From NCBI GenBank assembly GCA_026396115.1, contig JAPLXL010000002.1, forward strand, positions 69,142 to 133,141: a stretch of DNA of 64,000 nt. The letters are read 5' to 3'. Shown in pieces: positions 32,092-64,000 of this stretch; the stretch's first letter is position 1, and every line of letters begins with the position of its first letter. This DNA comes from Candidatus Nealsonbacteria bacterium. Its GTDB lineage: Bacteria; Patescibacteriota; Minisyncoccia; Minisyncoccales; RBG-13-42-11. The notes under the pieces were generated by a model. The model was not told the origin of the DNA, did no database searches, and worked only from the letters and a program-made list of their open reading frames with translations. The position numbers were made by a program, and so were the translations under genes.

Positions 32092-33012
32092 ATGAAGATT
32101 TTAGTTAGCGGCGGAGCCGGATTTATCGGTTCCAACCTTGTAGATAAATTAATCAAAGATGGCCACCAAGTGGTTGTTATTGATAATCTATTTACCGGCA
32201 AAAAGGAAAACTTAAACCCTAAAGCCAAATTTTACAAAATTGATATTCAAAGCCCAAAAATCTCTCAAATTTTCAAAAAAGAAAAACCGGAAATTGTTTT
32301 TCATTTTGCCGCCCAAGTTGACGTCAGAAAATCAGTTGAAAACCCAATCGAAAGCGCTAAAGTTAATATTTTAGGAAGTTTGAATATTTTAGAAAATTGC
32401 AAAAAATTCAAAATCAAAAAAATAATTTTTTCCTCAACCGGCGGAGCAATATATGGCGAAGCCAAAATCATTCCCACTCCGGAAGATTATCCAGCTAACC
32501 CTCTTTCACCCTACGGCATTGAAAAATTAACAATTGAAAAATATTTAGATTATTACTGGAAAATTTTTAAAATCCCTTATATTTCTTTGAGATTAGCCAA
32601 TGTTTACGGGCCCCGCCAAAATTCAAAAGGCGAGGCAGGGGTAATAGCTATATTTTGCGATAAAATGCTTTGCGGGAAACAACCAATCATCTATGGTTTA
32701 GGTTGCCAAACCAGAGACTTTGTTTTTGTTGACGATGTAGCGGAAGCTAATATTTTGACAATGAAAAGCAAAAGAGTAGGGATTTTCAATATTGGCACAG
32801 GAAAAGAGACAGACATTGACACCATTTTTGAAAAAATCAAGAAACTGATAGGCGTAAAGTGTAAAAAAATTCACGCTTCGGCCCAACTCGGCGAACAAAA
32901 AAGAAGTTGTTTAGATTACACCAAAGCCAAGAAAGAACTCGGCTGGCAACCAAAATACAGTTTAGAAAATGGATTAAGAGAAACTATAAATTATTTTAAA
33001 AATGGAAATTAG
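32092..33012 (+). CDS. NAD-dependent nucleotide-sugar 4-epimerase (GalE-like)
   Basis: MKILVSGGAGFIGSNL Rossmann start and the SPYGIEK (YxxxK) catalytic motif. The ATG at 32092 is preferred. Confidence 0.8.
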   Translation: MKILVSGGAGFIGSNLVDKLIKDGHQVVVIDNLFTGKKENLNPKAKFYKIDIQSPKISQIFKKEKPEIVFHFAAQVDVRKSVENPIESAKVNILGSLNILENCKKFKIKKIIFSSTGGAIYGEAKIIPTPEDYPANPLSPYGIEKLTIEKYLDYYWKIFKIPYISLRLANVYGPRQNSKGEAGVIAIFCDKMLCGKQPIIYGLGCQTRDFVFVDDVAEANILTMKSKRVGIFNIGTGKETDIDTIFEKIKKLIGVKCKKIHASAQLGEQKRSCLDYTKAKKELGWQPKYSLENGLRETINYFKNGN

Positions 33013-34501
33013 AAACATAATCAGAAGCATTTATTTAAACCCGAGAAATTTTTTTCTTGAAAATTTAGGGGTAAGACAAACCATTTTTAAAAACACTTTT
33101 TGGTTGGCAGTAGCAGAGGGCATAGGCAGGTTTTTAAAATTAATTTTAATTATTTATGTTGCCCGAATTTTAGGGGCTACGGAATACGGAAAATTCACTT
33201 TTGCTTTGGCTTTTGTTGGTTTGTTCGCTATTTTTTCCGACCTTGGCATTTCCTCAATTTGCACCCGTGAAATTGCTCGGGAAAAGGAAAAAGAAAAAGA
33301 ATTCCCGGCTGTTCTTTCCTTAAAACTTCTTCTAAGCATAGGAACCTTGATTTTAATTTGTTTGGGTTCTTTTTTTATTACTCTTGACCCAATAATCCGG
33401 GGAATGATCTGGATTTTGGGAATTTATATTATAGTAAGTAGTTTTTCGCAGGTTATCTATGCTTTCTTTCAAGCCCGCCAGAAAATGGAATATGAAGCCT
33501 GGGCTAAAATTTTACAGGCGGCGGCTGTGACCGGAGCCGGGTTTTTTGTCCTTTTTAATTTTCCTTCGGTCCAAAATTTAAGCTTGAGTTATTTATTTGC
33601 CAGCTTAATTGCTTTGCTTTTTATTTTATTCTTTTTTCATTTTAAGGTTTATCGACTGAAAATATACTTCAACAGCATTATTTGGCGAAATATTTTGGCA
33701 ATGTCTTGGCCTTTGGCTTTATCGGGCATGATGGGTTCAATTTGCGCTGATACTGATTCAATAATGATGGGCTATTGGGGCCAGATTATCCAAACCGGCT
33801 GGTATAATGCCGCTCAAAGAATTATGGTAGTTGCTTTAATTCCCACCGGCCTGATTGGGGCAAGTTTTTTTCCGGTCTTGAGCAAGTTTTTCGGCCAATC
33901 AAAAGAAAAACTTCAGAAAGGCTGGAATTATTTTATGGAGGTGATGATTTTTATTGCCGTTCCTTTAGTCATCGGCGGTATTGTTTTGGCCTCCAAAATT
34001 ATTGATTTTGTTTACGACCCGACCTTTTTTCCTTCCATTTTGGTATTTCAAATTTTAATAGTAACCGGCGGAATTGCTATTATAACCGGTCCGTTCATTC
34101 ATGCCTTAATTGTTTCAAATCAGCAGAAAAAAACCTTTTGGATTGTTCTTTTTGGGGCACTTACCAATGTAATTTTGAATTTTATTCTGATTCCTGAATA
34201 TTCTCTTTATGGCGCAGCTTTTACCACTTTAGTAGCCAGTTTTTTAATGCTCTTTTTAAGTTTTAAATCTACTTTGAAATTTACAGAGATTAAGCCCATA
34301 AATTTAAAATTGGTTTTGACTTTTTTTGCAGTTGCTCTTTCTACCATCCCAATGTGTTTTGTGATTACCCGGCCTCAAATTTATAATCTTTATATTATTT
34401 GGATAATTTTAATCGGAGCAGTAATATATACTATTTCCCTTGTTATTTTAAAAGGATTAATAAGTTATTTCTCTTTATTCTCTAAAATTTCGAGAAGATA
34501 A
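33002..34501 (+). CDS. MOP-superfamily polysaccharide flippase (Wzx-like)
   Basis: 499 aa with about 14 TM helices. The N-terminal pattern (NTFWLAVAEGIGRFLKLILIIYVARILG) is typical of polysaccharide biosynthesis/export proteins. Confidence 0.75.
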   Translation: MEIRNIIRSIYLNPRNFFLENLGVRQTIFKNTFWLAVAEGIGRFLKLILIIYVARILGATEYGKFTFALAFVGLFAIFSDLGISSICTREIAREKEKEKEFPAVLSLKLLLSIGTLILICLGSFFITLDPIIRGMIWILGIYIIVSSFSQVIYAFFQARQKMEYEAWAKILQAAAVTGAGFFVLFNFPSVQNLSLSYLFASLIALLFILFFFHFKVYRLKIYFNSIIWRNILAMSWPLALSGMMGSICADTDSIMMGYWGQIIQTGWYNAAQRIMVVALIPTGLIGASFFPVLSKFFGQSKEKLQKGWNYFMEVMIFIAVPLVIGGIVLASKIIDFVYDPTFFPSILVFQILIVTGGIAIITGPFIHALIVSNQQKKTFWIVLFGALTNVILNFILIPEYSLYGAAFTTLVASFLMLFLSFKSTLKFTEIKPINLKLVLTFFAVALSTIPMCFVITRPQIYNLYIIWIILIGAVIYTISLVILKGLISYFSLFSKISRR

Positions 34502-34515
34502 AAAGAAGCTTCGGT

Positions 34516-35208
34516 ATGCAAATAGTTATTTTATGCGGAGGAAAAGCAACTCGGCTTTATCCCCTAACCAAAAAAATTCCCAAGTCAATGATAAAGATTG
34601 AGAGGAAGCCCTTTTTGGAGCATCAATTAGATTTGTTAAAAAAGAACAGAATAAAGAACATATTATTGTGTGTCGGATATAAAGGAGAACAAATCAAAGA
34701 TTATTTTGAAGATGGCAAAAAATTCGGCGTAGATATTAAATATAGCCAAGAAAAAAAGAAACTGCTTGGCACAGCCGGAGCCTTAAAGAATGCGGAAAAA
34801 TTATTGGCAGACAAATTTTTAATGATCTGGGGCGATTCTTATTTACCTTTTGATTTTCAAAAAGCAGTAAAATTTTTTAACAAATTTAACAAGCTTGGAT
34901 TGATGACGATTTATAAAAATTGCAACAGATACGAACCGAGCAATGTTGAAGTTAAAGGGAATTTAGTAAAGGTTTACAGCAAAAAAAGAAAAACCAAAAA
35001 AATGAAATACATTGATTACGGAGTGAGTATTTTCAGAAAAGAAGTTTTAAAATATATTCCCAAAAATCAGGTCTACGATATATCAGGACTAAATCAGTTA
35101 TTAATTAAAAAAAAACAACTTTTAGCTTTTCCGGTCAGAAAAAGATTTTATCAAATAGGCACTTTTTCCGGCATAGAGGAATTTCGAGAATATCTTAAAA
35201 ATAATTGA
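34516..35208 (+). CDS. hddC: sugar-1-phosphate nucleotidyltransferase (D-glycero-D-manno-heptose 1-phosphate guanylyltransferase-like)
   Basis: IVILCGGKATRLYPLTKKIPKSMI is an NTP-transferase motif. Sits adjacent to hddA, gmhA and gmhB. Confidence 0.6.
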   Translation: MQIVILCGGKATRLYPLTKKIPKSMIKIERKPFLEHQLDLLKKNRIKNILLCVGYKGEQIKDYFEDGKKFGVDIKYSQEKKKLLGTAGALKNAEKLLADKFLMIWGDSYLPFDFQKAVKFFNKFNKLGLMTIYKNCNRYEPSNVEVKGNLVKVYSKKRKTKKMKYIDYGVSIFRKEVLKYIPKNQVYDISGLNQLLIKKKQLLAFPVRKRFYQIGTFSGIEEFREYLKNN

Positions 35209-35255
35209 CAAAAAGTAGATATTGATTAAGAATAAGATATATTTAGCAAAAAAAT

Positions 35256-36263
35256 ATGATTATTGTTCGGGCACCAATGAGAATATCAATTGGGGGAGGA
35301 GGTACGGATTTACCTTCTTATTACTCAAAATTCGGCGGTGAATGGACTTCAGCCGCTATTGATAAATATGTTTATATCACAGTCCATAAAAGATTTGATG
35401 ATACTATTCGGGTATGTTATTCGAAAACAGAAAACGTGAACAAACCGGAAGAAATTCAGCATCCAATAGTCAGAGAGGCCTTAAAATTATTAGGAATAGA
35501 CGGGGGAATAGAAATTTTTTCTGCCGCTGATATTCCCTCCAATACTGGATTAGGATCTTCGGGAAGTTTTACTGTTGCCTTGCTTACTGCCTTGCATACC
35601 TATTTACAAGATGTAAAAAAAGAAGATTCTCGGACCAAGACTGAAATTGCCGAACAAGCCTTTCATATTGCTATAGATTTATTAAAGGAACCTTCGGGTA
35701 AACAGGACGAATATATTGCTGCCCATGGCGGACTAACTTCATTTTCAGTTTCTCCGGAGGGAAAAGTAAAAGTTGAACCCCTTTATATAAATAAAATCTC
35801 TCCCGAAGTCATGAGCGAACTAGAACATAATCTTTTAATGTTTTATACCGGTATCAGGAGAGAATCCTCTCAGGTTTTAAGGAATCAAGCTAAAGCTACT
35901 GAACAAGGAGAAAAAGATATGATTGAAAATCTTAACCGGGTTAAGGAAATCGGGAGAGAAATCAAAGAAGCATTGGAAAAAGGTAATTTAACCAGGTTTG
36001 GAGAGTTGTTGGATATTCACTGGCAGGAGAAAATAAAAAGAAAGGGAACTTCTGATCCCAGAATTAACGGGTGGTATGAAACAGCTAAGGAAGCAGGAGC
36101 GATTGGTGGAAAACTGATGGGAGCCGGGGGAGGAGGATTTTTCTTGTTTTATTGTGAAAATCAAAAAGAAAAATTAAGAAAAGCAATGGCTTCTCAGGGT
36201 CTGAGAGAAACAGCATTTCGATTTGATCTTGAAGGCACAAAGGTCGTAGCAAATTTTATATAA
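35256..36263 (+). CDS. hddA: GHMP kinase, D-glycero-D-manno-heptose 7-phosphate kinase-like
   Basis: VRAPMRISIGGGGTDLPSYY start and the GHMP motif PSNTGLGSSGSFTVAL. Confidence 0.7.
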   Translation: MIIVRAPMRISIGGGGTDLPSYYSKFGGEWTSAAIDKYVYITVHKRFDDTIRVCYSKTENVNKPEEIQHPIVREALKLLGIDGGIEIFSAADIPSNTGLGSSGSFTVALLTALHTYLQDVKKEDSRTKTEIAEQAFHIAIDLLKEPSGKQDEYIAAHGGLTSFSVSPEGKVKVEPLYINKISPEVMSELEHNLLMFYTGIRRESSQVLRNQAKATEQGEKDMIENLNRVKEIGREIKEALEKGNLTRFGELLDIHWQEKIKRKGTSDPRINGWYETAKEAGAIGGKLMGAGGGGFFLFYCENQKEKLRKAMASQGLRETAFRFDLEGTKVVANFI

Positions 36264-36274
36264 TATTTAAATCA

Positions 36275-36862
36275 ATGAAAATATCTGAATATATTCAAAA
36301 TTATCTTTCTGAAACAGCAGAAATTGCAAAAAATATAGATAAAGAAACGATTGAGAAAACTATAAAGACTTTATTGAAGGTAAAATCACAAAAGGGGAGA
36401 ATCTTTTTCTTAGGAGTAGGCGGAGGAGCAGGAACCGGCTCTCACGCTGCCAATGATTTTAATAAAATTGCCAAAATTTCCAGTATTTGTTTAAGTGATA
36501 ATCCAGCTTTATTGACCGCCCTGGTCAATGATGAAGGTTGGGAATCTATTTTTAAAAGACAATTAGAAATGCACCAATTGACTGCTAATGATTGTCTTTT
36601 TATTTTTTCCGTAGGCGGAGGAACAGAAACAACCTCCAAGAATTTGGTGGAAGCTATTAATTATGCCAAAGAGATCGGAGCTAAAATTATTGGTGTGGTG
36701 GGAAAAGACACCGGAGTTACTGCTCAAGAAGCTGATGCTTGTATAATTACTCCTTGCCCTGAGCCATCAAGGAGAACAGCTCATACTGAAGATTTTCAGA
36801 TGATTATGGACCATCTTCTGGCGAATCTTTTAGCCGAATTGGAAAATCAAGATGAAGAATAA
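36275..36862 (+). CDS. gmhA: SIS-domain sedoheptulose 7-phosphate isomerase
   Basis: The SIS phosphosugar-binding pattern IFFLGVGGGAGTGSHAANDF. Size and context fit. Confidence 0.65.
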   Translation: MKISEYIQNYLSETAEIAKNIDKETIEKTIKTLLKVKSQKGRIFFLGVGGGAGTGSHAANDFNKIAKISSICLSDNPALLTALVNDEGWESIFKRQLEMHQLTANDCLFIFSVGGGTETTSKNLVEAINYAKEIGAKIIGVVGKDTGVTAQEADACIITPCPEPSRRTAHTEDFQMIMDHLLANLLAELENQDEE

Positions 36863-37388
36863 AGCTATCTTTATAGATCGCGACGGTGTGATAAATAAGA
36901 TAATTATGCGGAATGAAAAGCCGTCTTCACCTTGGAACTTAAAAGAATTTGAGATTCTCTCTGATGTTAAAGAGTGTTTAGGAGCATTTAAAGAAATGGG
37001 ATTTCTGAATATAGTTTTTACCAGTCAGCCGGATATAAGCAGAGATAATTTAAAAATAGAAGATTTGGAAAAAATGCATAAGCTTATATCAGAAACATTG
37101 CCGGTAGATGAAATTAAATTTTGTCCCCATGATGATAAAGATAATTGTCAGTGCCGAAAGCCAAAACCGGGATTGATACTTGAAGCAGTTAAAAAATGGT
37201 CTATTGATTTAGAGAAATCTTATGTAATTGGAGATAGCTGGAAGGATATTGAGGCCGGCAAAGCGGCTGGCTGTAAAACATTTTTACTTAGGAGAGAGTA
37301 TAATAAGGATTTTCAAAAAGATTATGATTTTGAAGTCGATAATCTTAAAAAATCGGTCGAAATTATAAAAAAATTAGATAAAAAATAA
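36852..37388 (+). CDS. gmhB: D,D-heptose 1,7-bisphosphate phosphatase (HAD-IIIA)
   Basis: IFIDRDGVIN (DxDG), CPHDDKDNCQCRKPKPGL (zinc-finger/CRKP motif) and GDSWKDIEAG. Confidence 0.8.
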   Translation: MKNKAIFIDRDGVINKIIMRNEKPSSPWNLKEFEILSDVKECLGAFKEMGFLNIVFTSQPDISRDNLKIEDLEKMHKLISETLPVDEIKFCPHDDKDNCQCRKPKPGLILEAVKKWSIDLEKSYVIGDSWKDIEAGKAAGCKTFLLRREYNKDFQKDYDFEVDNLKKSVEIIKKLDKK

Positions 37389-37394
37389 AAATAT

Positions 37395-38126
37395 ATGAAA
37401 ATATTTGTTGATTCAGCTGACACGGAAGAGGTTAAAAAATATCTTTCCTGGGGTCTTTGCGACGGGGTAACCACTAACCCCACTGTTTGTTTAAAATGCG
37501 GAGTTACCGGTGGCATGGAAGGGATTAAAAAGCGTTCTTTGGAAATTGCCAAATTAATTACTCCTCGGACGCTTAGTGTTGAAGTTACCAGTGAAAATCC
37601 GGAAGAGATTCTTGAACAAGCGAGAGATTATGCTAAATTAGCCGAAAATATTGCTGTTAAGGTAACTATTACTGATAGAGAGGGAAATAGTTTCTTGCCG
37701 GTCATCCGTCAATTAGTTAGTGAAGGAATAAGAGTTAATGTCACAGCGATGACTACTTTCAACCAGGCAATCTTCGCTGCTAAAGCAATTAGGGCAGGAA
37801 TGGAAGCAAATCCTGAAAAAGCCAAAATTTCTCATTTTATCAGTGTTTTTGGCGGAAGAATATCTGAGGAACAAGGAGTGGAGCGGACTTTCCAGGTTCT
37901 GAAAGATCTTCGAAATTGGCTTGATTTCCACCGGTTTAAAGGAATTGAAATTATTGTTGGTTCGGTAAGGACCCCGGAGAATGTTGAGTATTGGTCAAGA
38001 ACAGGTGCTCATATTTTGACCATTCCCCCCGAAGTAATTGCTAAATCTTTGCTCGGAGCAAGAACGAAGGAAACAGTGGCTCAATTTATAGAAGATGCCA
38101 AAAAATCAATGGAGGAATTGGGGTAG
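37395..38126 (+). CDS. transaldolase / fructose-6-phosphate aldolase family (short type)
   Basis: MKIFVDSADTEEVKKY...CDGVTTNPT and the IAVKVT Schiff-base lysine context. Confidence 0.8.
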   Translation: MKIFVDSADTEEVKKYLSWGLCDGVTTNPTVCLKCGVTGGMEGIKKRSLEIAKLITPRTLSVEVTSENPEEILEQARDYAKLAENIAVKVTITDREGNSFLPVIRQLVSEGIRVNVTAMTTFNQAIFAAKAIRAGMEANPEKAKISHFISVFGGRISEEQGVERTFQVLKDLRNWLDFHRFKGIEIIVGSVRTPENVEYWSRTGAHILTIPPEVIAKSLLGARTKETVAQFIEDAKKSMEELG

Positions 38127-38165: not shown

Positions 38166-38744
38166 ATGCCAAAGATCATTCTTTCTAAGAAGGGAAAAAT
38201 TTTAGAGTTTTCAATTGCCCTGTTTTTAATTTTGATAGGAGTTAGCCTAAGATTTCTTCCTCATCCTCCGAATTTCAGCCCTGTTATTGCTATTTCTTTA
38301 TTTGGAGGGGTTTATTTTTCAAAGAGGATAGCCTTTATTTTGCCGATTTTGATAATGTTAATCAGTGATATTTTTATTGGTTACTATGAAATTGGCTTGA
38401 TGGCTTCGGTTTATGGAAGTTTTGTCTTATGTGTATTTTTAGGCTCTTGGTTAAAAGAACATAAAAAATGGCAGACAATTTTGGGAAGCTCTATTTTATC
38501 CGCTCTTATATTTTTCATTTTGACAAATTTTGCTGTTTGGGCTTTTACTCCCTGGTATGCTAAAACTTTCTCTGGAATAATTCAGTGTTATCTAATGGCT
38601 TTGCCATTTTTCAAAAATACTCTGTTGGGAAATTTCTTTTACGTAGCTGTCCTATTTGGGACTTATGAAATAGCAGAAATTTGGATAAGAAAAAAGTTTA
38701 GAATAATTGAATCGTTACCTGCTTTTGTAAATGCAAAGATATGA
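38166..38744 (+). CDS. six-TM membrane protein (DUF6580-like); possible small-molecule or vitamin uptake component
   Basis: 192 aa. RFLPHPPNFSPVIAISLFGG resembles the PHxPNFxP..A..LFGG signature I recall for the DUF6580 putative-transport family. Its stop overlaps the start of the B12-binding radical SAM gene. Confidence 0.35.
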   Translation: MPKIILSKKGKILEFSIALFLILIGVSLRFLPHPPNFSPVIAISLFGGVYFSKRIAFILPILIMLISDIFIGYYEIGLMASVYGSFVLCVFLGSWLKEHKKWQTILGSSILSALIFFILTNFAVWAFTPWYAKTFSGIIQCYLMALPFFKNTLLGNFFYVAVLFGTYEIAEIWIRKKFRIIESLPAFVNAKI

Positions 38745-57205: not shown

Positions 57206-58383
57206 GAAAACTTAAAATAGCTGTTTATCATAATCTTCCGGATGGAGGGGCGAAAAAAGTAATTGAAAATATTATATCTGGTCTAAAAAACCGAGGTCAT
57301 GAGATAGACATATATACCGGGGAAGGTTTTCATTCTTCAAAATTAAGTAAAAAATATAGTTTTAACAAGATTCTATTACCTTTTAACCTTTGGCGCTATA
57401 GAAGATTTTGCCGGAAATTAGCTTCAGAAATCAATAGAGAGGACTATGACGTTGGGATAATTACAAACTCAAAGATACTTCAACACCCTTATGTATTAAA
57501 ATACATAAAATTCCCTAAACTTTTAATATCCCAAGAACCTTTGAGAAGTATCTATGAAAGAAATTTCCAGAAAAATTATGTTTATAAAAGATATTACAAG
57601 GGATTGGCTGGAAGACTTGTTTCTTTATATTCTCTTTTAGATAATTTTGTGAGGGAAAGACCTGATAGAGAAAATCTGAAAAATGCGGATGAATTAATTG
57701 TAAATTCTTATTTCAGCAAAGAAAACTTTTTATCTGACTACGGAATTCTTGGAAAAGTAGTCTATCCCGGAGTGGATACAAAAATATTTAAGCCACCTTT
57801 GGAGAATAAAAGGGAAAACTATATTTTAAGCATCGGTATCTATCATTTAGTTAAAGCTCACGATTTAGTTATCAAAGCTCTTAGTTTTATTCCCGAAAAT
57901 AAACGGCCTTTACTCAAAATACTTGGTTTTGGGAATCTTGATACATCTAAAAAAGAACTCCAGTATCTTAAAAATCTTAGGGACAGTTTAGGTTTAGAGG
58001 AAAATGTAAAATTTGAGAAAGATTTTTTAGGAAATAATATAATAAATTATTACCAAAATGCTTATTTAACAATAGCAACCCATTTTTTAGAACCTTTTGG
58101 TTTTGCTCCTATTGAATCTATGGCTTGTGGAACACCCGTGGTTGCTGTAAAAGAAGGAGGTTTTCGGGAAACAGTAAAGCATGGAGAAACGGGTCTGTTG
58201 GTAGAAAGAGATCCAAAAGAGCTTGCAAATGCTATTTTATGTCTGATAGAAAACAAAGAAATTTGGAAAAGATTTTCTGAAAACGGACTTAATTGGGTAA
58301 AATCTAATTTCTCTTGGGAATCAGCGGTAATTAAAATAGAGAAAGAACTTCTTACTCTTACAAAAAATGAGAATAGGTATTGA
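57202..58383 (+). CDS. family 4 glycosyltransferase
   Basis: EPFGFAPIESMACGTPVVAV (Ex7E motif). The ATG at 57202 overlaps the upstream stop (ATGA). Confidence 0.8.
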   Translation: MRKLKIAVYHNLPDGGAKKVIENIISGLKNRGHEIDIYTGEGFHSSKLSKKYSFNKILLPFNLWRYRRFCRKLASEINREDYDVGIITNSKILQHPYVLKYIKFPKLLISQEPLRSIYERNFQKNYVYKRYYKGLAGRLVSLYSLLDNFVRERPDRENLKNADELIVNSYFSKENFLSDYGILGKVVYPGVDTKIFKPPLENKRENYILSIGIYHLVKAHDLVIKALSFIPENKRPLLKILGFGNLDTSKKELQYLKNLRDSLGLEENVKFEKDFLGNNIINYYQNAYLTIATHFLEPFGFAPIESMACGTPVVAVKEGGFRETVKHGETGLLVERDPKELANAILCLIENKEIWKRFSENGLNWVKSNFSWESAVIKIEKELLTLTKNENRY

Positions 58384-59512
58384 TGCAAGATTATTAGAGA
58401 GAGAAATGACGGGTATCGGTCGAGTCGTTGCGGGTATTTTAAACTGCATTCGTTCATTAGATAAAGATAACGAATATTTTTTATTTTCTTTTGGTAACCT
58501 AGAAAATTATAGAAAGAAAGGCTTCACGATTATACCAACGGGCCGAAATAAAGTAATCCCTTCTGAAGTTTATTCTCCAATTTGGCTGAATTTTATCTTG
58601 CCTCGTTATATTAAAAAAAATAATATAGATTTGTTCTTTTTTCCAAGCTCCCTAATTCCGACGGTTAATCTTAGATGCAAGAAAGTAATTCTTCTTTGCG
58701 ATGTTTTTCATAAAGTAAATAAAAATTATCACCCCTTTTTCTATAGGAAATATCTGGATTTGTTTCTGAATTTTTCAATTAAAAAAAGTAATTTAGTTTT
58801 AACAATTTCTGAAAATTCAAAGGAAGATATTATAAATTTTTACAAAGTTCCCGGAGGGAAAATAAAAATGGTATATTTAGCCGCAGGAGAAGAATTTAGG
58901 CCTCGTTTATTAACACCGGAAGAGAAAGAATATCTGATAAAAAAATATAATCTACCTCCTAATTTTATTCTTTATATCGGTATTATAGATTTCAGAAAAA
59001 ATATTAATGCTATAATAGAAACAGCCGATATCTTGGTAAATAGAGAGAAGAAAGATGTCTATTTTGTTTTAATTGGCAGACCGGCTTTGGATTATAAAAA
59101 TATAATTAAAAAAAGCCAAAAAATTAGAGAAGGACATATTATCTTTTTGGATGCAGAGAGTAAAGATATTCCTTTTATCTATAATCTCGCAAATGTGTTT
59201 TTCTTTCCCTCTTTTTATGAAGGATTTGGCTTGAGTCCGTTAGAAGCAATGCAGTCGGGTACGCCGGTTGTTGCTTCTAATGCTTCTTCTTTACCCGAGG
59301 TTATCGGAGAAGAAGGAGGAGGAGGAGGATTGATGAGAGAGCCAAATGATTATCAGGGATTTGCCAATGATATTCTGAAGTTGTCAGAAGATAAAAATTT
59401 TTATCAGGAAATAAGAGAAAAGGGGGTTGAGCAAGCAAAAAATTTTAGCTGGAGAAAAACTACCGAGGAAATTATAGAAGTTTTTAATCAAATTTATGAA
59501 ACCGAAAAATAA
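58367..59512 (+). CDS. family 4 glycosyltransferase
   Basis: [20 protein letters not shown] (Ex7E motif). Confidence 0.8.
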
Positions 59513-60797
59513 AATATGCGTAATTGGTTTATGGCATCTTGGATGCGTTGTTTCGTCTTGTCTGGCTAATGCAGGATACAAAGTCTGCGGGGTAGATTTT
59601 ACTCCCGAAATTATCAATAATCTGAAAAAAGGGAAACCGCCGTTATATGAACTGGGTTTGGAAGAGTTATTGGTTAAAAATTTAAAAAGCAAGAGAATTA
59701 GTTTCACCGATTCTTTCAAGGATGCGCTTGATAAAGCAAGTTTTATTTTTTTAGCTTTTGACACGCCTGTTGATGAAAAAGACAGGTCAGATTTATCGAT
59801 TATCTATAACGCTTGTAAAAAAATAGCTGAGTTTGCGCCAGAGAAATTTACATTGGTGATTATGAGCCAGATACCGGTCGGTACATCAAAAATTCTCAAA
59901 GAGTTTATCTTAAAGAAAAATAAAGCTCTCTTATTTGAAGTAGTTTATAACCCAGAAAATTTGAGACTTGGGCAAGCGTTAGAGGGATTTATGAAACCAG
60001 ATAGGTTAATTATCGGTTTAGAGAATGGAATTATAAAGAAAAAAATAGAAAAACTATATTCTTTTATTAAAGCCCCTAAGATATATATGGATTTAAGCAG
60101 CGCTGAAATGACAAAGCATGCAATCAATTCTTATTTGGCAGGCTCTATTAGTTTTATAAATGAGATAGCGGGTTTATGTGAAGTAACAGGTGCTGATGCC
60201 AGGAAAGTTGCAGAGGGGATGAAAAGCGACAAGCGGATTGGCCAATATGCATTTTTGAATCCGGGTTTGGGATTTTCTGGCGGTACGCTTGCCAGAGACC
60301 TTCAAGTTTTAAGGAAAATTGGGAAACGTAAAAAAATAAAAACACGAATGCTAAATGCTATTATAGAAGTGAATCAGGAGCAAAACAAAAAAATTATAAA
60401 AAAAATAAAAAGTATATTTGGTTCAATTTCCAAATTGAACGTTACAATATTAGGCCTCACTTATAAGCCGGGAACTAGTACTTTACGGCGTTCGGCAGCT
60501 TTAAAAATAGCTCAAAAATTAATTTTTTATAAGGCTAACGTTAAGGCATTTGATCCTATGGTTAATACCCAAAAGATAATAACAGGATTGAAAGTTTTTA
60601 AGAGTCCATATGATGCTGTAAGAAACTCCGACCTTATTCTTTTAATTACCGAGTGGCCGGAATTTAAAAATTTAAATTTTTCTAAAATTAAAAGATTAAT
60701 GAGAAAGCCGATAATAATAGATTGTAAAAATTTTCTAGATTCAGAAGTTGTCAAAAATATAGGTTTTGATTATTATGGTGTTGGTATTAAAAATTAA
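59496..60797 (+). CDS. UDP-glucose/GDP-mannose 6-dehydrogenase-family protein with non-canonical active site
   Basis: Family architecture is clear (YNPENLRLG, LTYKPGTSTLRRSAA). However, the nucleophile position reads GFSGGTLARD instead of GFGGSCLPKD, and the NAD motif is GLWHLG instead of GxGYVG. Confidence 0.7.
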   Translation: MKPKNKICVIGLWHLGCVVSSCLANAGYKVCGVDFTPEIINNLKKGKPPLYELGLEELLVKNLKSKRISFTDSFKDALDKASFIFLAFDTPVDEKDRSDLSIIYNACKKIAEFAPEKFTLVIMSQIPVGTSKILKEFILKKNKALLFEVVYNPENLRLGQALEGFMKPDRLIIGLENGIIKKKIEKLYSFIKAPKIYMDLSSAEMTKHAINSYLAGSISFINEIAGLCEVTGADARKVAEGMKSDKRIGQYAFLNPGLGFSGGTLARDLQVLRKIGKRKKIKTRMLNAIIEVNQEQNKKIIKKIKSIFGSISKLNVTILGLTYKPGTSTLRRSAALKIAQKLIFYKANVKAFDPMVNTQKIITGLKVFKSPYDAVRNSDLILLITEWPEFKNLNFSKIKRLMRKPIIIDCKNFLDSEVVKNIGFDYYGVGIKN

Positions 60798-60808: not shown

Positions 60809-61639
60809 ATGTTATTGAAAAATAAAATAGCAATAATTACCGGAGCTGCCGGAGGTATAGGGAGTGTTATCGCCCAAACATTTATCAAAGAAGGATGTAA
60901 TGTGGTTTTGGCTGACCGCATAAAACCGGATTTAGATAAAATTTCTAAAATAGTAAAGAAATATAATCCTAAACTTTTATCTGCGGTAGTAGATGTTACT
61001 AATGCAAAAGAGGTAAAGCGCGTAGTAGACCTTGCGCAAAAAAAATTTTCTAAAATAGATATTTTAGTAAATGCTGCCGGCATTCAAGGGCCGATAGGAA
61101 GTTTTATAGAAAATGATATAAAAAAATGGATGAAGACAATAGATGTGAATCTTTTTGGCACCATATTGTTTATAAAATCTGTTCTGCCGATTATGATAAA
61201 GCAGGGTTACGGAAAGATTATAAATTTTTCAGGCGGAGGAGCTTTTAATCCACGGCCAAATTTCTCGGCTTATGCTACCTCAAAAGCAGCGGTTGTCCGT
61301 CTTACCGAAACTTTAGCCGAAGAAACAAAAAGATATAATATTCAAATTAATGCAATCTCTCCGGGAGCGGTGAACACTAAGATGTTGGAGCAAGTGCTTA
61401 AGTCAGGAGCGGAGGCCGCCGGAGCTGAGTTCTATGAAAAATCGAAAAAGCAAAAAAAAGAAGGTGGAGACTCGCCCCAGTTAGCAGCCGATCTGATATT
61501 ATTTTTGTCTTCAGAAAAATCTTATAATTTAAGCGGCAAAATAATAAGCGCTAAATGGGATAATTGGAGGGACTGGAATAAGGAAGAAATTTCAAAGATT
61601 ATGTCATCCGATATCTATACTTTAAGAAGAATAATATGA
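60809..61639 (+). CDS. short-chain dehydrogenase/reductase
   Basis: ITGAAGGIGSVIA (TGxxxGIG) and YATSKAAV (YxxxK). Confidence 0.85.
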   Translation: MLLKNKIAIITGAAGGIGSVIAQTFIKEGCNVVLADRIKPDLDKISKIVKKYNPKLLSAVVDVTNAKEVKRVVDLAQKKFSKIDILVNAAGIQGPIGSFIENDIKKWMKTIDVNLFGTILFIKSVLPIMIKQGYGKIINFSGGGAFNPRPNFSAYATSKAAVVRLTETLAEETKRYNIQINAISPGAVNTKMLEQVLKSGAEAAGAEFYEKSKKQKKEGGDSPQLAADLILFLSSEKSYNLSGKIISAKWDNWRDWNKEEISKIMSSDIYTLRRII

Positions 61640-62640
61640 GGGTAGGAATTATTGGGCTTGGCCGTCAGGGTTGGCGCCGAGCTGAGGCAATAAAAAAAAC
61701 GAGCGATAAAATAATTATAGGAGCTACCGATAAAATAAATGAGAATTCGAAACTCTTCTCTGAAAGTTTTGGTTGTGAAATCACTGATAATTGGAAAGAT
61801 TTAGTTAAAAGGAAAGATGTTGATATTGTGGTGATTTGTACTCCACCAAACCTGCATAGTAATATGGCGGTTACTGCCCTAAGAGCTAAAAAACATGTTT
61901 TGTGCGAAAAACCCTTAGCTTTGAATGTTAAAGAGGCAAAGATAATATTAAAAGAAGTAAAAAAAAGTGGTTGTAAGCTGAAATGTGGGTTTAATCTTCG
62001 TTATCATCCGGCGATATCTTTAGCAAAGAAATGGGTAGATAGGGGATTAATTGGAGAACTAATTTTTATTCGCTGTCGTTATGGAATTGTCGGAAGAGAA
62101 GGATATGAAAAAGATTGGCGAGCCAAAAAAGAAATCAGTGGCGGAGGACAATTGATGGATCAGGGAATGCATGTTTTAGATTTGTCTCGTTGGTTTTTGG
62201 GTGAATTCAAAGAGGTTTTTGGAAGTCTCTCAACTAATTTTTGGAAAATTTCTCCTTTAGAGGATAATGTTTTTGCCATTCTTGAGACCAAAGAAAAACA
62301 GACAGCTTTTTGCCATATCAGCTGGACTCAATGGAAAAATTTATTTTCTTTTGAAGTTTATGGAAAAGACGGCTATCTTACATCTGAAGGTTTAGGCGGA
62401 AGTTATGGATTGGAGAAACTTATTTTTGGAAAGAGAGATTTTAAAAAACCTTTTGATCAGAAAATAATTAAATTTGGGAAGAAAGATTCTTCTTGGCTTG
62501 AAGAATGGAAAGAGTTTACCTTAGCGATAAAAAAAGACCGGCAGCCCCTAGGTTCTGATTATGACGGTTTTATGGCGCTTAAACTGGCTGAAGCTCTTTA
62601 TAAATCGGCCAGAACAAAGAAAATAGTAAAATTAAATTAA
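61636..62640 (+). CDS. Gfo/Idh/MocA-family oxidoreductase
   Basis: MRVGIIGLGRQGWRR Rossmann start and VLCEKPLA (EKP motif). Confidence 0.85.
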   Translation: MRVGIIGLGRQGWRRAEAIKKTSDKIIIGATDKINENSKLFSESFGCEITDNWKDLVKRKDVDIVVICTPPNLHSNMAVTALRAKKHVLCEKPLALNVKEAKIILKEVKKSGCKLKCGFNLRYHPAISLAKKWVDRGLIGELIFIRCRYGIVGREGYEKDWRAKKEISGGGQLMDQGMHVLDLSRWFLGEFKEVFGSLSTNFWKISPLEDNVFAILETKEKQTAFCHISWTQWKNLFSFEVYGKDGYLTSEGLGGSYGLEKLIFGKRDFKKPFDQKIIKFGKKDSSWLEEWKEFTLAIKKDRQPLGSDYDGFMALKLAEALYKSARTKKIVKLN

Positions 62641-63575
62641 GGTTTAAGATAATCTTTTATCCCTTGCTCAAGATTATATTTTGGCTCCCAATTTAAATAT
62701 TTTTTTGTCGTAGTAATATCGGCTTCGGTATAATATTGATAAGAATCTTTAAATGGATTTTCTTGATATTCCGGCTTTAGATTTGTTCCTAAGAACTTAT
62801 TTAGTGTATCTACGGTTTCGTTAACGCTAATAGCTTTTCCGGTACCGATATTGAATAATTCGTTAACTTTCGAATTTAAAGAAAGTAAATTAGCTCTGAC
62901 AACATCTTTAACATAAATGAAATCTCTTTTTTGTTTTCCGTCACCGAAAACGATAGGGCTTTTTCCTTTTTTCATTTGGGAATACAATTTCCAGATTAAG
63001 CTTCCTTTTTTTTCCGTGACTTTATAATATTCTTTTGGTCCGTAGACAACAAAATATCTTAGACCAACCAACTTCAGATTTTTTTTCTCAAATAAATCAA
63101 AATATTCTCTGGCAATATTATCTTGAATTAACTTTGAAAAAGCGTAAGCGTTAACTGGATATTCTCCTTCTCCTACTTTCATTGGAGGAGCGGAGTTTCC
63201 GTAGACACCGCTTGACGAAGCATAAACGAGGTGAGTGTTATGGGACAAGGCATAATTTAAGAGGTTTCTGAAACTCTCAATATTTTCATAAATTACTTTT
63301 TGCTCTTCATCTCTGGAGATAATAGTATCGGTGATTGCCGCCTGATGAAAAATAATGTCTAATTTTGGAAAAAATTTATCCAGATCTACGTTTAAAACGT
63401 TATTTGCTATAACATCTCCTTTAAATCCTGACAGGTTTTGGAAATGACCTGATGAAAAATTATCTATTACAAAAATTTCGGCTTCCGGATATTTTTCCTG
63501 AATTTCCAATACCAAATTTGCACCGATAAACCCGGCTCCTCCGGTTATTAAAATTTTCTTTTTATTTAAATCCAT
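62637..63575 (-). CDS. nucleotide-heptose 6-epimerase-like extended SDR (HldD/RfaD-like)
   Basis: ILITGGAGFIGANL ... LVYASSSGVYG ... NAYAFSKLIQD ... VGLRYFVVYGPKE ... QKRDFIYVKDV ... NIGTGKA runs colinear with the E. coli HldD sequence as I recall it. Confidence 0.65.
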   Translation of the reverse strand: MDLNKKKILITGGAGFIGANLVLEIQEKYPEAEIFVIDNFSSGHFQNLSGFKGDVIANNVLNVDLDKFFPKLDIIFHQAAITDTIISRDEEQKVIYENIESFRNLLNYALSHNTHLVYASSSGVYGNSAPPMKVGEGEYPVNAYAFSKLIQDNIAREYFDLFEKKNLKLVGLRYFVVYGPKEYYKVTEKKGSLIWKLYSQMKKGKSPIVFGDGKQKRDFIYVKDVVRANLLSLNSKVNELFNIGTGKAISVNETVDTLNKFLGTNLKPEYQENPFKDSYQYYTEADITTTKKYLNWEPKYNLEQGIKDYLKP

Positions 63576-63624
63576 ACTAAGATGATTAAATAATCGATTT
63601 TATTTTAAGATATTCTAAGAATTT

Positions 63625-64000
63625 ATGCAAATTATTTTTTGGCTTTCTATAATTTTTATCCTTTATTGCTATTTCGGTTATCCCATGATTTTGGTGATTT
63701 TGGGCTTATTCTTTAAAAAGAAAACAAAAAGAGCAGAAATTAGCCCCTTGGTTTCTCTGTTGATCGTCGTCTATAATGAAGAGAAAATAATTGAGAGAAA
63801 AATCGAAAATAGTTTAGCTTTAGATTATCCGAAAAACAAATTGGAGATTGTAGTTGCTTCAGAATCTGATGATAAAACAGATGAAATTGTGAAGAGATAC
63901 AGGGAGAAAGGAGTAAAACTTTTTACTTATCCCGGGAGAGGAGGGAAGCCATATAGTATTTATCGAACTTTGCCAAAGTGTCAGGGGGAGATTATTGTCT
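63625..64000 (+). CDS. family 2 glycosyltransferase (3' end cut by window edge; not in ORF track)
   Basis: My own translation is MQIIFWLSIIFILYCYFGYPMILVILGLFFKKKTKRAEISPLVSLLIVVYNEEKIIERKIENSLALDYPKNKLEIVVASESDDKTDEIV... This shows a TM anchor plus the GT2 signature of membrane-bound processive-type GT2 enzymes. Confidence 0.7.
   Translation, partial: MQIIFWLSIIFILYCYFGYPMILVILGLFFKKKTKRAEISPLVSLLIVVYNEEKIIERKIENSLALDYPKNKLEIVVASESDDKTDEIVKRYREKGVKLFTYPGRGGKPYSIYRTLPKCQGEIIV

Follow-up and report, generated by a model that had tools for sequence, protein, structure and literature searches.

The window, a stretch of 64,000 nt, comes from a metagenome-assembled genome of Candidatus Nealsonbacteria (CPR). 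We have found that it probably contains most of a locus of about 36 kb for a surface glycan of the Wzx/Wzy_C type, which would be built on a polyprenyl-phosphate lipid carrier. The evidence lies in the families, order and motifs of the genes, in folds and in the conservation of synteny in relatives. The locus is unusual: heptose genes lie beside four radical SAM enzymes, five methyltransferases and a likely B12 importer, and no characterised pathway matches this combination. Three features emerged from the present analysis: a radical SAM enzyme homologous to BtrN, a B12-radical SAM enzyme which resembles MgmA, TsrM, AprD4 and OxsB, and a DUF6580 membrane protein with a BtuM/ECF-like fold. A first-pass annotation had predicted a methylated, radical-tailored surface glycan with heptose. 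Families and synteny support that prediction; the chemistry of the glycan is what we infer from them.

Organization of the locus

From position 32047/32092 to 64000 there are 33 genes, according to the ORF listing and a translation of the window tail. As had been claimed, 32 of them are on the plus strand: 31 complete genes and a partial GT2 gene at 63625–64000. The only minus-strand gene is found at 62637–63575. Neighbouring genes overlap by up to 61 nt or are separated by at most 58 nt, and coding sequence fills about 99% of the region; the very short gaps and overlaps noticed at first reading (38741/38744, 52544/47, 58367/83, 59496/512 and 61636/39) are all present. Such a co-directional array, with no gap above 58 nt, is not random and lies far beyond chance. 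A scan of the region gave no excess of promoter-like or terminator-like sites over shuffled sequence. These scans are uninformative, so that co-transcription as a single operon stays inferred. A related Nealsonbacteria record has a length of 694,748 bp, in agreement with the reduced genome which had been guessed; the locus would therefore take roughly 5% of such a genome.

Two membrane genes were absent from the initial list, the DUF6580 gene (38166) and a small co-directional ORF at 31752–32069 (plus strand, about 105 aa, hydrophobic). The latter has TGGTATAAT a few nt upstream of its ATG. It gave no Pfam or NCBIfam match and has no homologue in any related locus compared. The array may start with this ORF, but its membership in the cluster is uncertain.

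Families were assigned with Pfam gathering scores as threshold, named functions with NCBIfam equivalog cutoffs. No protein of the locus reaches the equivalog cutoff of a named O-antigen, capsule, EPS or teichuronic-acid protein, and no characterised locus of comparable kind was found in the literature searched; the lack of a characterised counterpart had been correctly anticipated. The locus is a mosaic: its arms are conserved and its centre is variable. All genes described below are on the plus strand, except where indicated.

Sugar and export genes in the two arms

The left arm starts with an extended SDR at 32092–33012 (Pfam Epimerase, 200 bits), an NDP-sugar epimerase/dehydratase of the GalE/RmlB-like type; its top NCBIfam matches, GalE (194 bits) and RmlB (181 bits), are both under cutoff. 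It is followed by the Wzx-type MOP flippase at 33002–34501, which was recognised from the start. It matches Polysacc_synt with 135 bits, has 12 hydrophobic segments and is 68% identical to its counterpart in the related locus L006.

The heptose module comes next, with a transaldolase-family gene behind it. Its first gene, at 34516–35208, encodes a sugar-1-phosphate nucleotidyltransferase (NTP_transferase, 96.7 bits) and candidate HddC: the HddC model gives 104.6 bits (cutoff 300) without being the top match, while its PDB matches include Yersinia HddC (6jq8/5xhw). The GHMP sugar kinase at 35256–36263 is a candidate heptose-7-phosphate kinase of the HddA type. Its best NCBIfam match, over the full length, is HddA (144 bits, cutoff 600), and in the PDB it comes nearest to the heptose kinases 4usm/4usk, 3k85 and 4n3o (E 6e-37 to 2e-30). 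The SIS-domain isomerase at 36275–36862 (Pfam SIS_2) has gmhA as best NCBIfam match (57.7 bits, cutoff 209). The HAD-IIIA phosphatase at 36852–37388 passes the domain models TIGR01662 and TIGR01656; GmhB is its best match, with 121.8 bits against the equivalog cutoff of 178. We consider them GmhA and GmhB candidates. After these comes a short enzyme of the transaldolase/FSA family at 37395–38126 (Pfam TAL_FSA, 120 bits), which also sits with heptose genes in L005, L006, L007, L011 and L008. A complete route to GDP-D-glycero-D-manno-heptose had been claimed. The enzyme families are indeed present; all four pathway enzymes miss their equivalog cutoffs, and the nucleotide may be GDP or another one. 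At this family level the left arm would convert sedoheptulose-7-phosphate, presumably supplied by the transaldolase, into NDP-D-glycero-manno-heptose: the transaldolase would be followed by the GmhA-like isomerase, the HddA-like kinase, the GmhB-like phosphatase and the HddC-like nucleotidyltransferase.

The right arm contains three GT4 glycosyltransferases, at 52544–53677 (Glycos_transf_1, 85 bits; 76% identity in L019), 57202–58383 and 58367–59512. Between them there are an extended SDR nearest to NDP-hexose 4,6-dehydratases at 53683–54711 (Epimerase, 152.6 bits; RmlB model, 154.8 bits against 365), two sugar-1-phosphate nucleotidyltransferases (NTP_transferase) at 54716–55441, AglF/RmlA-long-like, and 55459–56229, and a LegB/RmlB-like dehydratase/epimerase, also an extended SDR, at 56219–57205. 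The total of NTP_transferase proteins is three (34516, 54716 and 55459), thus two in addition to the heptose one instead of the three which had been counted. An NDP-sugar 6-dehydrogenase of the UGDH family is found at 59496–60797. It passes TIGR03026 (357 bits against 190); against TuaD it gives 349.7 bits with a cutoff of 700. Three redox or epimerase enzymes follow: a classical SDR at 60809–61639 (adh_short, 188.6 bits), a Gfo/Idh/MocA oxidoreductase at 61636–62640, a candidate sugar 3-dehydrogenase, and the minus-strand gene at 62637–63575, an SDR of the HldD-like heptose 6-epimerase family. The first two are each 52% identical to neighbouring genes of the archaeal-type locus L008; the Gfo/Idh/MocA protein is 81–99% identical in L016–L020. 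The HldD-like protein falls just below its cutoff (TIGR02197, 266.1 bits against 274.6) and its best PDB match is HldD of H. pylori (3sxp, E 1e-62). The last gene is the membrane-anchored GT2 at 63625–64000. Only its N-terminal 125 aa precede the window edge; relatives have 377 aa, and identity to the full-length genes of L016–L020 and L096 is 67–100%.

The UGDH-family, Gfo/Idh/MocA, GT4 and GH-like proteins and the five SDR-type enzymes (four extended ones and adh_short) were thus rightly listed by the first-pass annotation, since all exceed Pfam gathering scores; for GT2 we have found one complete gene (43135) and a partial one, not two and a partial. The right arm would supply a uronic acid through the UGDH-family enzyme and one or two further NDP-(deoxy)hexoses through its two nucleotidyltransferases and two dehydratase-like SDRs, with adh_short, Gfo/Idh/MocA and the HldD-like SDR as redox and epimerase enzymes.

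It is unlikely that the two arms belong to independent loci which happen to be adjacent, namely an island with heptose, methylation and radical SAM genes and a teichuronic-acid-like wall-polymer operon (nucleotidyltransferase-SDR-GT4-UGDH-...-GT2-PGT-Wzy_C), each with its own product. Tua proteins are among the best matches of several backbone proteins, and GC falls to 0.28–0.30 at 40–44 kb. The centre also varies in relatives: in L007 the methyltransferases are followed by a GT4, a radical SAM/SPASM gene, two GT2 genes and then UGDH, without the WbsX-like gene of the window, whereas L005 has additional PAPS-reductase-like, sulfatase and radical SAM genes. However, every Tua match is far under its equivalog cutoff, no gap exceeds 58 nt and the strand is constant until 62.6 kb. 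The whole array has a single flippase, a single priming transferase and a single Wzy_C are present in relatives, and the arms are found together in L005/L096 and partly in L007 and L008. We therefore keep the reading of a single glycan locus.

The central block and its proposed role in tailoring

All four radical SAM proteins have the CxxxCxxC motif and exceed the Pfam cutoff of 29.5 bits (58.8, 54.9, 84.5 and 53.2); one has in addition a B12-binding domain and the other three a SPASM domain. Cysteines of the twitch domain are present as well. The three FkbM proteins (Methyltransf_21) pass TIGR01444 with 103–115 bits against 37.7. Both calls, made at first from the translations, thus survive profile-HMM testing; those of two class I methyltransferases and an MTA phosphorylase were likewise confirmed by Pfam and NCBIfam.

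The DUF6580 gene at 38166–38744 (179 bits), which encodes a membrane protein, overlaps with its stop by 4 nt the start of the B12-radical SAM gene. The AF2 model of the protein (pLDDT 86.6) has an ECF S-component/BtuM-like fold. A Foldseek search of the PDB places hydroxycobalamin-bound BtuM (8ovv) first and ECF S components next; with E 0.014 and TM about 0.5–0.6 these matches are too weak to assign a substrate. DUF6580 also adjoins B12-radical SAM genes in the CPR glycan loci L011, L097 and L098, which makes four independent loci in all. It is likely a vitamin B12 importer: it would bring in corrinoid for the translationally coupled enzyme, in an organism which we assume cannot make it.

The B12-radical SAM enzyme itself (38741–40339, class B type, cluster cysteines C215/C219/C222) has no sequence homologue in the PDB. 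Its model (pLDDT 90.6) finds MgmA, TsrM, AprD4 and OxsB as top folds. It shares 100% identity with a protein of Candidatus Nealsonbacteria and travels with heptose and FkbM genes in CPR bacteria and archaeal-type contigs, once beside AglB. It may modify a sugar carbon, most likely by C-methylation of an unactivated position; however, the fold fits equally well AprD4, a non-methylating, cobalamin-free dehydratase, and AprD4-like chemistry is the alternative.

The FkbM-family methyltransferases are found at 40348–41271 (PF05050 71.6 bits; TIGR01444 102.9 against 37.7), 42246–43118 (83 and 109.9 bits), which is RfbT-like (V_cholerae_RfbT, 31.8 bits), and 44891–45802 (75.5 and 114.5 bits). The class I enzymes are at 44093–44845 (Methyltransf_23, 60.6 bits) and 50065–50856 (TIGR04290-like, 122.8 bits against 300). 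These five would O-methylate the sugars or the lipid-linked unit, on which the whole block is predicted to act.

The second radical SAM protein, at 41275–42189 (Pfam Radical_SAM and SPASM), is a twitch enzyme homologous over nearly its full length to BtrN, a carbohydrate dehydrogenase (4m7t, E 5e-28, residues 64–296 of 304). Its cysteines are C79/83/86, C230, C246/247, C290 and C293. It is a candidate sugar secondary-alcohol dehydrogenase or epimerase, and this homology lends weight to a role of the radical SAM genes in carbohydrate chemistry. Two more SPASM/twitch enzymes would take part in tailoring. The one at 46959–47957 (Radical_SAM 84.5, SPASM 28.5 bits; C34/38/41) matches PqqE, BlsE, SkfB and MoaA of the PDB in the core only. 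The one at 48856–50049 (53.2 and 43.8 bits) gives 138.7 bits with TIGR04317 (cutoff 380), its C-terminal domain matches BtrN (E 4e-7), and with the radical SAM gene adjoining DUF6580 in L098 it shares 40% identity. Between them lies the MTA phosphorylase MtnP at 48016–48837 (TIGR01694, 289.3 bits against 274.85; NF005876, 320.3 against 306). MtnP cleaves 5'-deoxyadenosine, which inhibits radical SAM enzymes (PMC8102628). Here it would clear the 5'-deoxyadenosine which these enzymes release.

The block also contains the complete GT2 at 43135–44073 (PF00535, 120 bits; best NCBIfam match TuaG, 100 bits against 400) and two GH-like proteins. The WbsX/GH99-like one at 45812–46906 (Glyco_hydro_99 88.8, Glyco_tran_WbsX 79.2 bits) has neither signal peptide nor TM segment; L005 and L012 have counterparts of about 70% identity. 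The other, a TIM-barrel protein of 562 aa at 50859–52547, has weak GH14/GH42 matches, no NCBIfam match and no TM segment.

Peptide maturation is a frequent role of SPASM radical SAM enzymes, and peptide-maturase families appear among the weak NCBIfam matches; for two enzymes the closest relatives of known structure, BtrN and AprD4, belong to aminoglycoside pathways. It is nevertheless very improbable that the product of the radical SAM, methyltransferase and glycosyltransferase genes is a modified peptide (RiPP) or a glycosylated, diffusible small molecule of aminoglycoside or cyclitol-like type. The gaps are too small for a precursor peptide gene, and 2-deoxy-scyllo-inosose synthase, aminotransferase, NRPS/PKS and protease are all absent; Wzx is the sole exporter. 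The block is set between nucleotide-sugar genes and glycosyltransferases, and relatives bound it with a polyprenyl-phosphate transferase and Wzy_C.

Related loci and the probable end of the cluster

Synteny with related CPR contigs extends over the whole cluster. L005 and L096 are the two ends of a 34.5-kb contig, in which the B12-radical SAM protein is 89% identical and the gene order is kept from the GHMP kinase to the GT2, followed by Bac_transf and a Wzy_C fragment. The heptose module, transaldolase, B12-radical SAM and FkbM genes also occur together in L005, L006/7, L011/12 and L008. Bac_transf comes after the terminal GT2 in L018 and L019 as well. In L019 it passes TIGR03025 and precedes Wzy_C+TPR and the housekeeping genes MurB and SecA, which mark the locus boundary. 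No initiating transferase or Wzy is visible in the window, as had been noted at first reading. Three relatives with synteny, the only loci where they were seen, have the phosphoglycosyltransferase and Wzy_C behind the terminal GT2, and here both probably lie immediately beyond the edge of the window. Neither the window nor the L019 extension showed a chain-length regulator or an LCP-type ligase.

The product might be a protein-linked oligosaccharide, with Wzy_C as a PglL/WsaB-type O-oligosaccharyltransferase acting on S-layer protein or pilins; we regard this as possible, though the less favoured reading. The Wzy_C family includes such enzymes, no Wzz-type regulator appears in the L019 extension, and Nealsonbacteria have an apparent S-layer. 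There is also a parallel with archaeal relatives, where the module stands beside the N-oligosaccharyltransferase AglB: L008 has the heptose module (32–57% identical), adh_short and Gfo (52% each), FkbM genes, a pair of B12-radical SAM genes and Wzx right beside an STT3/AglB gene. On the other hand, Pfam alone is unable to separate polymerase, ligase and oligosaccharyltransferase within Wzy_C, the 701-aa Wzy_C protein of L019 has no NCBIfam match and the Wzy_C gene is outside the window. In the Wzx/Wzy_C reading that we prefer, the phosphoglycosyltransferase would prime the carrier, five to six glycosyltransferases would build the oligosaccharide unit and Wzx would flip it; the Wzy_C-family protein would then polymerise it or hand it to an acceptor, which may be S-layer, pilin or wall.

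Organization and boundaries of the gene array

Between about 32.0 kb and the window edge at 64,000 the plus strand contains 31 complete genes and one partial gene, the minus strand only one (62637–63575), according to the ORF listing and the translation of the tail. Neighbouring genes are spaced by −61 to +58 nt, and coding sequence makes up about 99% of the region. The first-pass annotation had described an unbroken co-directional array: the listing and the translation agree, with all genes but one on the plus strand, and the gene overlaps quoted there are present. We consider it probable that this array directs the synthesis of a surface glycan which would be linked to polyprenyl phosphate, exported by a Wzx flippase, built with heptose and uronic acid and tailored by up to five SAM methyltransferases and four radical SAM enzymes. 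We infer this chemistry throughout, be it the heptose, the uronic acid or the methyl and radical tailoring.

The genes of the cluster were compared with Pfam gathering scores and with NCBIfam equivalog and domain cutoffs. The assignments which carried the earlier case pass this comparison. The Wzx flippase (33002–34501) reaches 135 bits with Polysacc_synt, with a cutoff of 28, and has 12 hydrophobic segments. The three FkbM methyltransferases (TIGR01444/PF05050) have TIGR01444 scores of 102.9, 109.9 and 114.5 bits versus 37.7. The two class I methyltransferases are found again, as are the Gfo/Idh/MocA oxidoreductase, adh_short, four extended SDRs, three GT4 and two GH-like proteins; UGDH passes TIGR03026. 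All four radical SAM proteins exceed the Pfam gathering score and contain the CxxxCxxC motif: one has an N-terminal B12-binding domain, the other three a SPASM/twitch domain. Two of the earlier counts were too high: there are three NTP_transferases in all instead of four, and one complete and one partial GT2 instead of two and a partial one. The gene of a membrane protein, DUF6580 (38166–38744, plus strand), was missing from the earlier list.

The left boundary is sharp, at about 31.7–32.0 kb, because the 32 kb upstream have an ordinary housekeeping content: FtsA, FtsZ, ComEC, HtrA, ClpB and a restriction-modification enzyme of Eco57I type, with two SBP_bac_5 genes on the opposite strand. The interval from the divergent SBP gene to the first SDR holds a small hydrophobic ORF (31752–32069, plus strand) of about 105 aa. 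It contains three hydrophobic stretches, matches no Pfam or NCBIfam family and lacks homologues in the comparison loci which we fetched from relatives. The short sequence TGGTATAAT is placed directly 5' of this ORF, only about 6 nt from its ATG. The ORF may therefore be the true first gene of the array, and its transcript may be leaderless. Promoter and terminator scans of the window gave the same counts as shuffled sequence and thus teach nothing about operon structure. In tRNA and Rfam scans of the whole window we found no RNA genes, which includes cobalamin riboswitches and tRNA integration sites.

The upstream region has some features of its own. Outside the cluster, among cell-division and housekeeping genes, there is a second, separate pair of a GT2 and a GH-like protein (6866–8778, plus strand); the latter is of TIM-barrel type and matches GH42/GH10 weakly. 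The GC content falls to 0.30–0.31 (vs. about 0.36) at 14000–20000, a stretch which includes a 1058-aa fused restriction-modification enzyme of the Eco57I/MmeI type (15564–18740, minus strand) and may have been acquired as a small island. Positions 22308–31640 contain a DUF5667 protein, a HAMP-domain protein and a pair of large proteins which match PG_binding_1 weakly (23351–27078); at the end two tandem SBP_bac_5 paralogues of 557 aa (minus strand) directly abut the cluster.

The putative heptose module and its nearest known relatives

A block of nucleotidyltransferase, GHMP kinase, SIS, HAD and transaldolase genes is found at 34516–38126. HddA, GmhA and GmhB are the best NCBIfam matches of their respective genes, with all scores below the equivalog cutoffs: 57.7 vs. 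209 bits for gmhA, 144 vs. 600 for HddA, 121.8 vs. 178 for GmhB and 104.6 vs. 300 for HddC. The best solved relatives of the GHMP kinase in a PDB search are heptose kinases (4usm/4usk, 3k85, 4n3o). For the nucleotidyltransferase, HddC is only the third-best NCBIfam model, and the top PDB match is a UTP-glucose-1-P uridylyltransferase, followed by HddC. Since every score is below its equivalog cutoff and HddC is not the top match, we grade heptose synthesis at family level only; at that level it is well supported that the block would encode NDP-D-glycero-manno-heptose synthesis. The first-pass annotation had proposed a GDP-heptose route: the heptose part holds at family level, but the GDP carrier is an assumption.

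The GDP-heptose route (GmhA/HddA/GmhB/HddC) is found in the S-layer glycan locus of Aneurinibacillus thermoaerophilus and in capsule loci of Campylobacter, Burkholderia and Yersinia. The window shares with them the same four enzyme families in one block inside a surface-glycan locus, and a kinase of the GHMP/HddA type related to solved heptose kinases. It differs by the low scores of all four proteins, by the transaldolase fused into the module, by the accompanying radical SAM enzymes and by its epimerase, which is not a GDP-heptose modifier of the Campylobacter type. This is the minus-strand SDR: it has 266 bits with TIGR02197 (cutoff 274.6) and matches HldD of H. pylori with E 1e-62. It is clearly HldD-like, which points to C6 epimerisation by this putative enzyme.

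The HldD-like epimerase (62637–63575, minus strand) is thus paired in one locus with an HddA-type GHMP kinase (35256–36263, plus strand). HldD is typical of the ADP-L-glycero-beta-D-manno-heptose route and HddA-type kinases of the GDP-alpha-heptose route, so that the pairing is odd: the kinase belongs to an alpha-anomer route and the epimerase to a beta one. We know of no characterised pathway with this hybrid.

Together with S-layer and capsule loci which have the GDP-heptose route, the nearest named relative is the tua operon (tuaA-H) of Bacillus subtilis. This operon and the Wzx/Wzy loci for EPS and O-antigen have in common with our locus and its relatives Bac_transf, a MOP flippase, GT2 and GT4, UGDH and a Wzy_C-type protein. 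B. subtilis also has a monoderm envelope, and TuaG, TuaD, TuaB and TuaC are among the best NCBIfam matches of the window. However none reaches its cutoff (TuaB 37 vs. 580 bits, TuaG 100 vs. 400, TuaD 350 vs. 700, TuaC 25–44 vs. 550). The window locus is about three times larger and shows no chain-length regulator; four radical SAM enzymes, five methyltransferases, the MTA phosphorylase and the heptose route are present only in it. The earlier failure to match a characterised locus is borne out: the architecture is of Wzx/Wzy type and no equivalog cutoff of the tua set or of the heptose route is attained.

Radical SAM enzymes and their putative support genes

Radical SAM enzymes are well known in the tailoring of antibiotic sugars; to our knowledge they are essentially uncharacterised in pathways for envelope polysaccharides or protein glycans. 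Those which act on carbohydrates in aminoglycoside pathways are BtrN, a 2-deoxy-scyllo-inosamine dehydrogenase with a twitch domain, AprD4, and the GenK-type B12 C-methyltransferases. The window protein at 41275–42189 (plus strand) aligns with BtrN (4m7t) with E 5e-28: residues 64–296 correspond to 21–258, almost the full length, and cysteines 230, 246/247, 290 and 293 are as expected for the auxiliary cluster of a twitch domain. The extent of this match and its cysteines are direct evidence that at least one of the four enzymes belongs to a carbohydrate-modifying lineage, not to that of peptide maturases. The protein at 48856–50049 shares the C-terminal domain of BtrN type. The one at 46959–47957 matches only generic cores (PqqE, BlsE, SkfB, MoaA).

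The enzyme with a B12-binding domain (B12-radical SAM, 38741–40339, plus strand) scores 42.3 bits with PF02310 (cutoff 32.1) and 58.8 with PF04055 (cutoff 29.5), with cysteines C215/C219/C222. A PDB sequence search gave no homologue, a difference from the aminoglycoside enzymes. Its predicted structure (pLDDT 90.6) superposes best on MgmA, TsrM, OxsB and the diol dehydratase AprD4; for the first three the probability is 1.0 and E about 5e-18 to 1e-15. As modelled, it is a class B-type (cobalamin) radical SAM enzyme. The fold fits both C-methylation and an AprD4-like dehydration without telling them apart; AprD4 has a similar fold and uses no cobalamin. The adjoining BtuM-like gene, DUF6580, would be circumstantial support for the use of cobalamin. 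The four enzymes (B12-radical SAM, BtrN-like and two SPASM enzymes) are a candidate set for new sugar chemistry, and a plausible substrate, NDP-heptose, can be made enzymatically.

The context differs from that of BtrN, AprD4 and GenK-type enzymes, since it is a lipid-carrier surface-glycan locus and not an antibiotic cluster. We know of no characterised system with four radical SAM enzymes, one of them cobalamin-type, inside an envelope-glycan locus, and of no such locus with its own 5'-deoxyadenosine scavenger and probable corrinoid importer. In the literature which we searched, radical SAM tailoring of glycans is nowhere connected with Nealsonbacteria, CPR or AglB clusters; the sole related mention is that of unstudied radical SAM genes in the capsule region of Campylobacter jejuni HS:19 (PMC8743553).

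The MTA phosphorylase (MtnP) of the first-pass annotation is confirmed at equivalog level (TIGR01694 289.3 bits vs. 274.85; NF005876 320.3 vs. 306), and its gene has a radical SAM gene on either side. In Synechococcus it is MtnP that cleaves 5'-deoxyadenosine, and this compound inhibits radical SAM enzymes (PMC8102628). Removal of the by-product would thus be a sensible role for the in-cluster enzyme, and we infer that it may have this role.

The stop codon of the DUF6580 gene overlaps the start of the B12-radical SAM gene. Its product, which matches locus tag NT012_00910, has about 190 aa and is a membrane protein; the model (pLDDT 86.6) has as top Foldseek match BtuM with hydroxycobalamin (8ovv), followed by the S components FolT, RibU and ThiT, with probability 0.9–1.0 and modest fold scores (best E 0.014, TM 0.47–0.68). 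Thus its resemblance to BtuM and the ECF S components lies in the fold and in the genomic tie to B12-dependent enzymes. It differs from them in sequence, as the PDB search gave non-significant matches only (E 0.11), and in its neighbourhood, where there are no ECF A/T genes and no cobalamin riboswitch. We found no mention of DUF6580 in the literature which we searched. The family is widespread across Parcubacteria, 65–77% conserved, with H33 invariant and C141 near-invariant. A DUF4430 gene usually precedes it in other CPR genomes. The DUF4430 protein had no matches in a PDB sequence search; by its InterPro annotation the family may be tied to transcobalamin-like B12-binding domains. In two CPR glycan loci (L097, 5563–8208, and L098, 4197–7687) the DUF4430-DUF6580 pair adjoins B12-radical SAM genes which are 22–28% identical to that of the window. 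In another relative, L011, DUF6580 has the same slot (3564–5149), and in L005 a DUF4430 remnant is found there. Its presence beside diverse B12 enzymes fits cofactor supply and not a pathway-specific role. These models and neighbourhoods suggest that DUF6580 is a probable corrinoid importer and that DUF4430 and DUF6580 may form a corrinoid-uptake pair of CPR bacteria; the link bears on how these bacteria acquire cobalamin.

Related loci in Bacteria and Archaea

The first-pass annotation had noted that no initiating transferase, Wzy polymerase or ligase was visible. There is none in the window, but in syntenic relatives Bac_transf and Wzy_C follow. One 34.5-kb contig, of which L005 and L096 are the ends, has a B12-radical SAM 89% identical to that of the window. 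Together L005 and L096 repeat the window order from the GHMP kinase onward and continue with two nucleotidyltransferases, SDR, two GT4, UGDH, adh_short, Gfo, SDR (opposite strand) and GT2, then Bac_transf (opposite strand); the contig ends in a Wzy_C fragment. In L019 there is synteny with window positions 52.5–64 kb, at 74–87% identity, and the order continues with GT2 (377 aa), Bac_transf (438 aa; 358 bits with TIGR03025, cutoff 296), Wzy_C+TPR (701 aa), MurB, a ribosome hibernation factor, a PKD protein and SecA. Among the best 120 matches of the L019 Bac_transf, none is a protein of the source contig. The Wzy_C fragment of L096 is 40% identical to the 701-aa protein, and L018 has the same junction of GT2 with Bac_transf. 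Most likely the source locus of our window includes an initiating transferase and a Wzy_C gene, which we would place about 0.8–4.5 kb past its edge. The housekeeping genes from MurB to SecA mark the right boundary, and the synteny beyond GT2 gives a complete locus of about 36 kb. Chain-length regulators (Wzz/PCP) are absent from the 33 window genes and from the 9.6-kb extension in L019; no LCP ligase was seen in the window or in the L019 extension.

The B12-radical SAM protein of the window is 100% identical to one from a metagenome-assembled Candidatus Nealsonbacteria genome, and the match of DUF6580 is on the same contig; Nealsonbacteria belong to the CPR/Patescibacteria. CPR bacteria of this kind are attached to host cells (reportedly Methanothrix in one studied Nealsonbacteria culture), so that their surface is the interface with the host. 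Their genomes are well under 1 Mb. A related Nealsonbacteria record has 694,748 bp; the earlier remark, which had been made conditional on a reduced genome, was correct in this. About 36 kb, around 5% of the genome, is therefore a large commitment to one glycan.

In metagenomes, large glycan loci without an explanation are frequent. The array might also be read as independent adjacent loci instead of one system. We think this unlikely: there is a single flippase, the genes are tightly packed, and in relatives the priming transferase and Wzy_C bound the array. The same three features speak against a small-molecule or RiPP product, as does the lack of room for a precursor-peptide gene, and such a product appears very improbable. 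A surface glycan remains our preferred reading, and the Wzy_C protein would either polymerise its repeat units or transfer an oligosaccharide to a protein such as S-layer or pilin.

The arms of the locus are conserved and its centre is variable, a familiar pattern of serotype-like glycan loci. The left arm is formed by Wzx, the heptose module, transaldolase and B12-radical SAM, the right arm by UGDH, adh_short, Gfo, HldD, GT2 and the phosphoglycosyltransferase. In the centre L007 has methyltransferases, GT4, a radical SAM/SPASM gene and two GT2, followed by UGDH. In the window the GC content has its minimum (0.28–0.30) at 40–44 kb, in the block of FkbM, BtrN-like radical SAM, FkbM and GT2, which agrees with a separate acquisition of the tailoring centre. 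L005, the locus of the closest relative, has an insert at 6445–9417, between the first FkbM gene and the next one, with PAPS-reductase-like and sulfatase-family genes and an extra radical SAM/SPASM. The insert shows the centre to be hypervariable, and it hints at a different glycan variant, which might be sulfated or phospho-substituted.

Relatives at least 50% identical to the B12-radical SAM are always accompanied by FkbM methyltransferases, glycosyltransferases and a Wzx flippase, and in five of six distinct contexts by the heptose/transaldolase module. Homologues at 46–47% identity (L009, L010) are found in non-glycan contexts; inference from context is therefore limited to the closer group. 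Some of the latter are on archaeal-type contigs, at 50–70% identity. L001–L003 look archaeal by their PCNA and a beta-CASP gene of the RNase J/aCPSF type; they have a B12-radical SAM at 10001–11671 which is 70% identical to that of the window, three B12-radical SAM genes altogether, DegT aminotransferase, methyltransferases, FkbM and Wzx. L008 (1–21590), also archaeal-looking, has the heptose module at 32–57% identity, transaldolase, adh_short and Gfo at 52% each, four to five FkbM genes and Wzx, directly beside STT3/AglB. Its SDR after Gfo was considered as an HldD orthologue and rejected, as it is only 24% identical, so that the HldD link does not extend to both domains.

Thus the archaeal-type contigs share with the window the B12-radical SAM family, FkbM and other methyltransferases, glycosyltransferases and Wzx, and in L008 the heptose module adjoins AglB. 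The window organism is nevertheless bacterial, no STT3/AglB was seen in the window, and relatives encode Bac_transf and Wzy_C. This archaeal context favours protein glycosylation, in which the oligosaccharide would be placed on S-layer or pilin instead of forming a polymer. We regard it as a serious alternative, although on the whole not the expected one. For the glycan itself, in whichever form, the comparison suggests that a mobile module has been exchanged between CPR bacteria and archaea and that it would serve N-glycosylation in the archaea. Its occurrence in both groups has a bearing on gene flow between domains among co-resident ultra-small microbes.

We put forward a wider reading only tentatively, as a whole which is doubtful in our own estimate. 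A conserved, horizontally mobile module, shared by ultra-small CPR bacteria and archaea, might make carbon-modified heptoses for surface glycans. It would consist of NDP-heptose synthesis, including a transaldolase of its own, together with FkbM methyltransferases and a radical SAM enzyme which depends on cobalamin; the heptoses could be C-methylated or have their chain extended to an octose-type sugar. The archaea would be DPANN-like and would use the module for AglB N-glycosylation; in CPR bacteria it would be serviced by DUF4430 and DUF6580, a B12 uptake pair not recognised before, and by the in-cluster 5'-deoxyadenosine scavenger. Were all this true, radical SAM chemistry would be routine in the diversification of envelope glycans of episymbiotic microbes, and the missing corrinoid importer of CPR bacteria would be DUF6580. 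In any case the locus yields concrete hypotheses for enzymology and transport.

L097 belongs to another glycan locus of Nealsonbacteria: at positions 1–5560 it has an FdtA-type isomerase, a DegT aminotransferase, a TylC3-type NDP-sugar C-methyltransferase (Methyltransf_13/14) and a B12-radical SAM. Glycan loci with radical SAM genes thus seem to be frequent and varied in this lineage.
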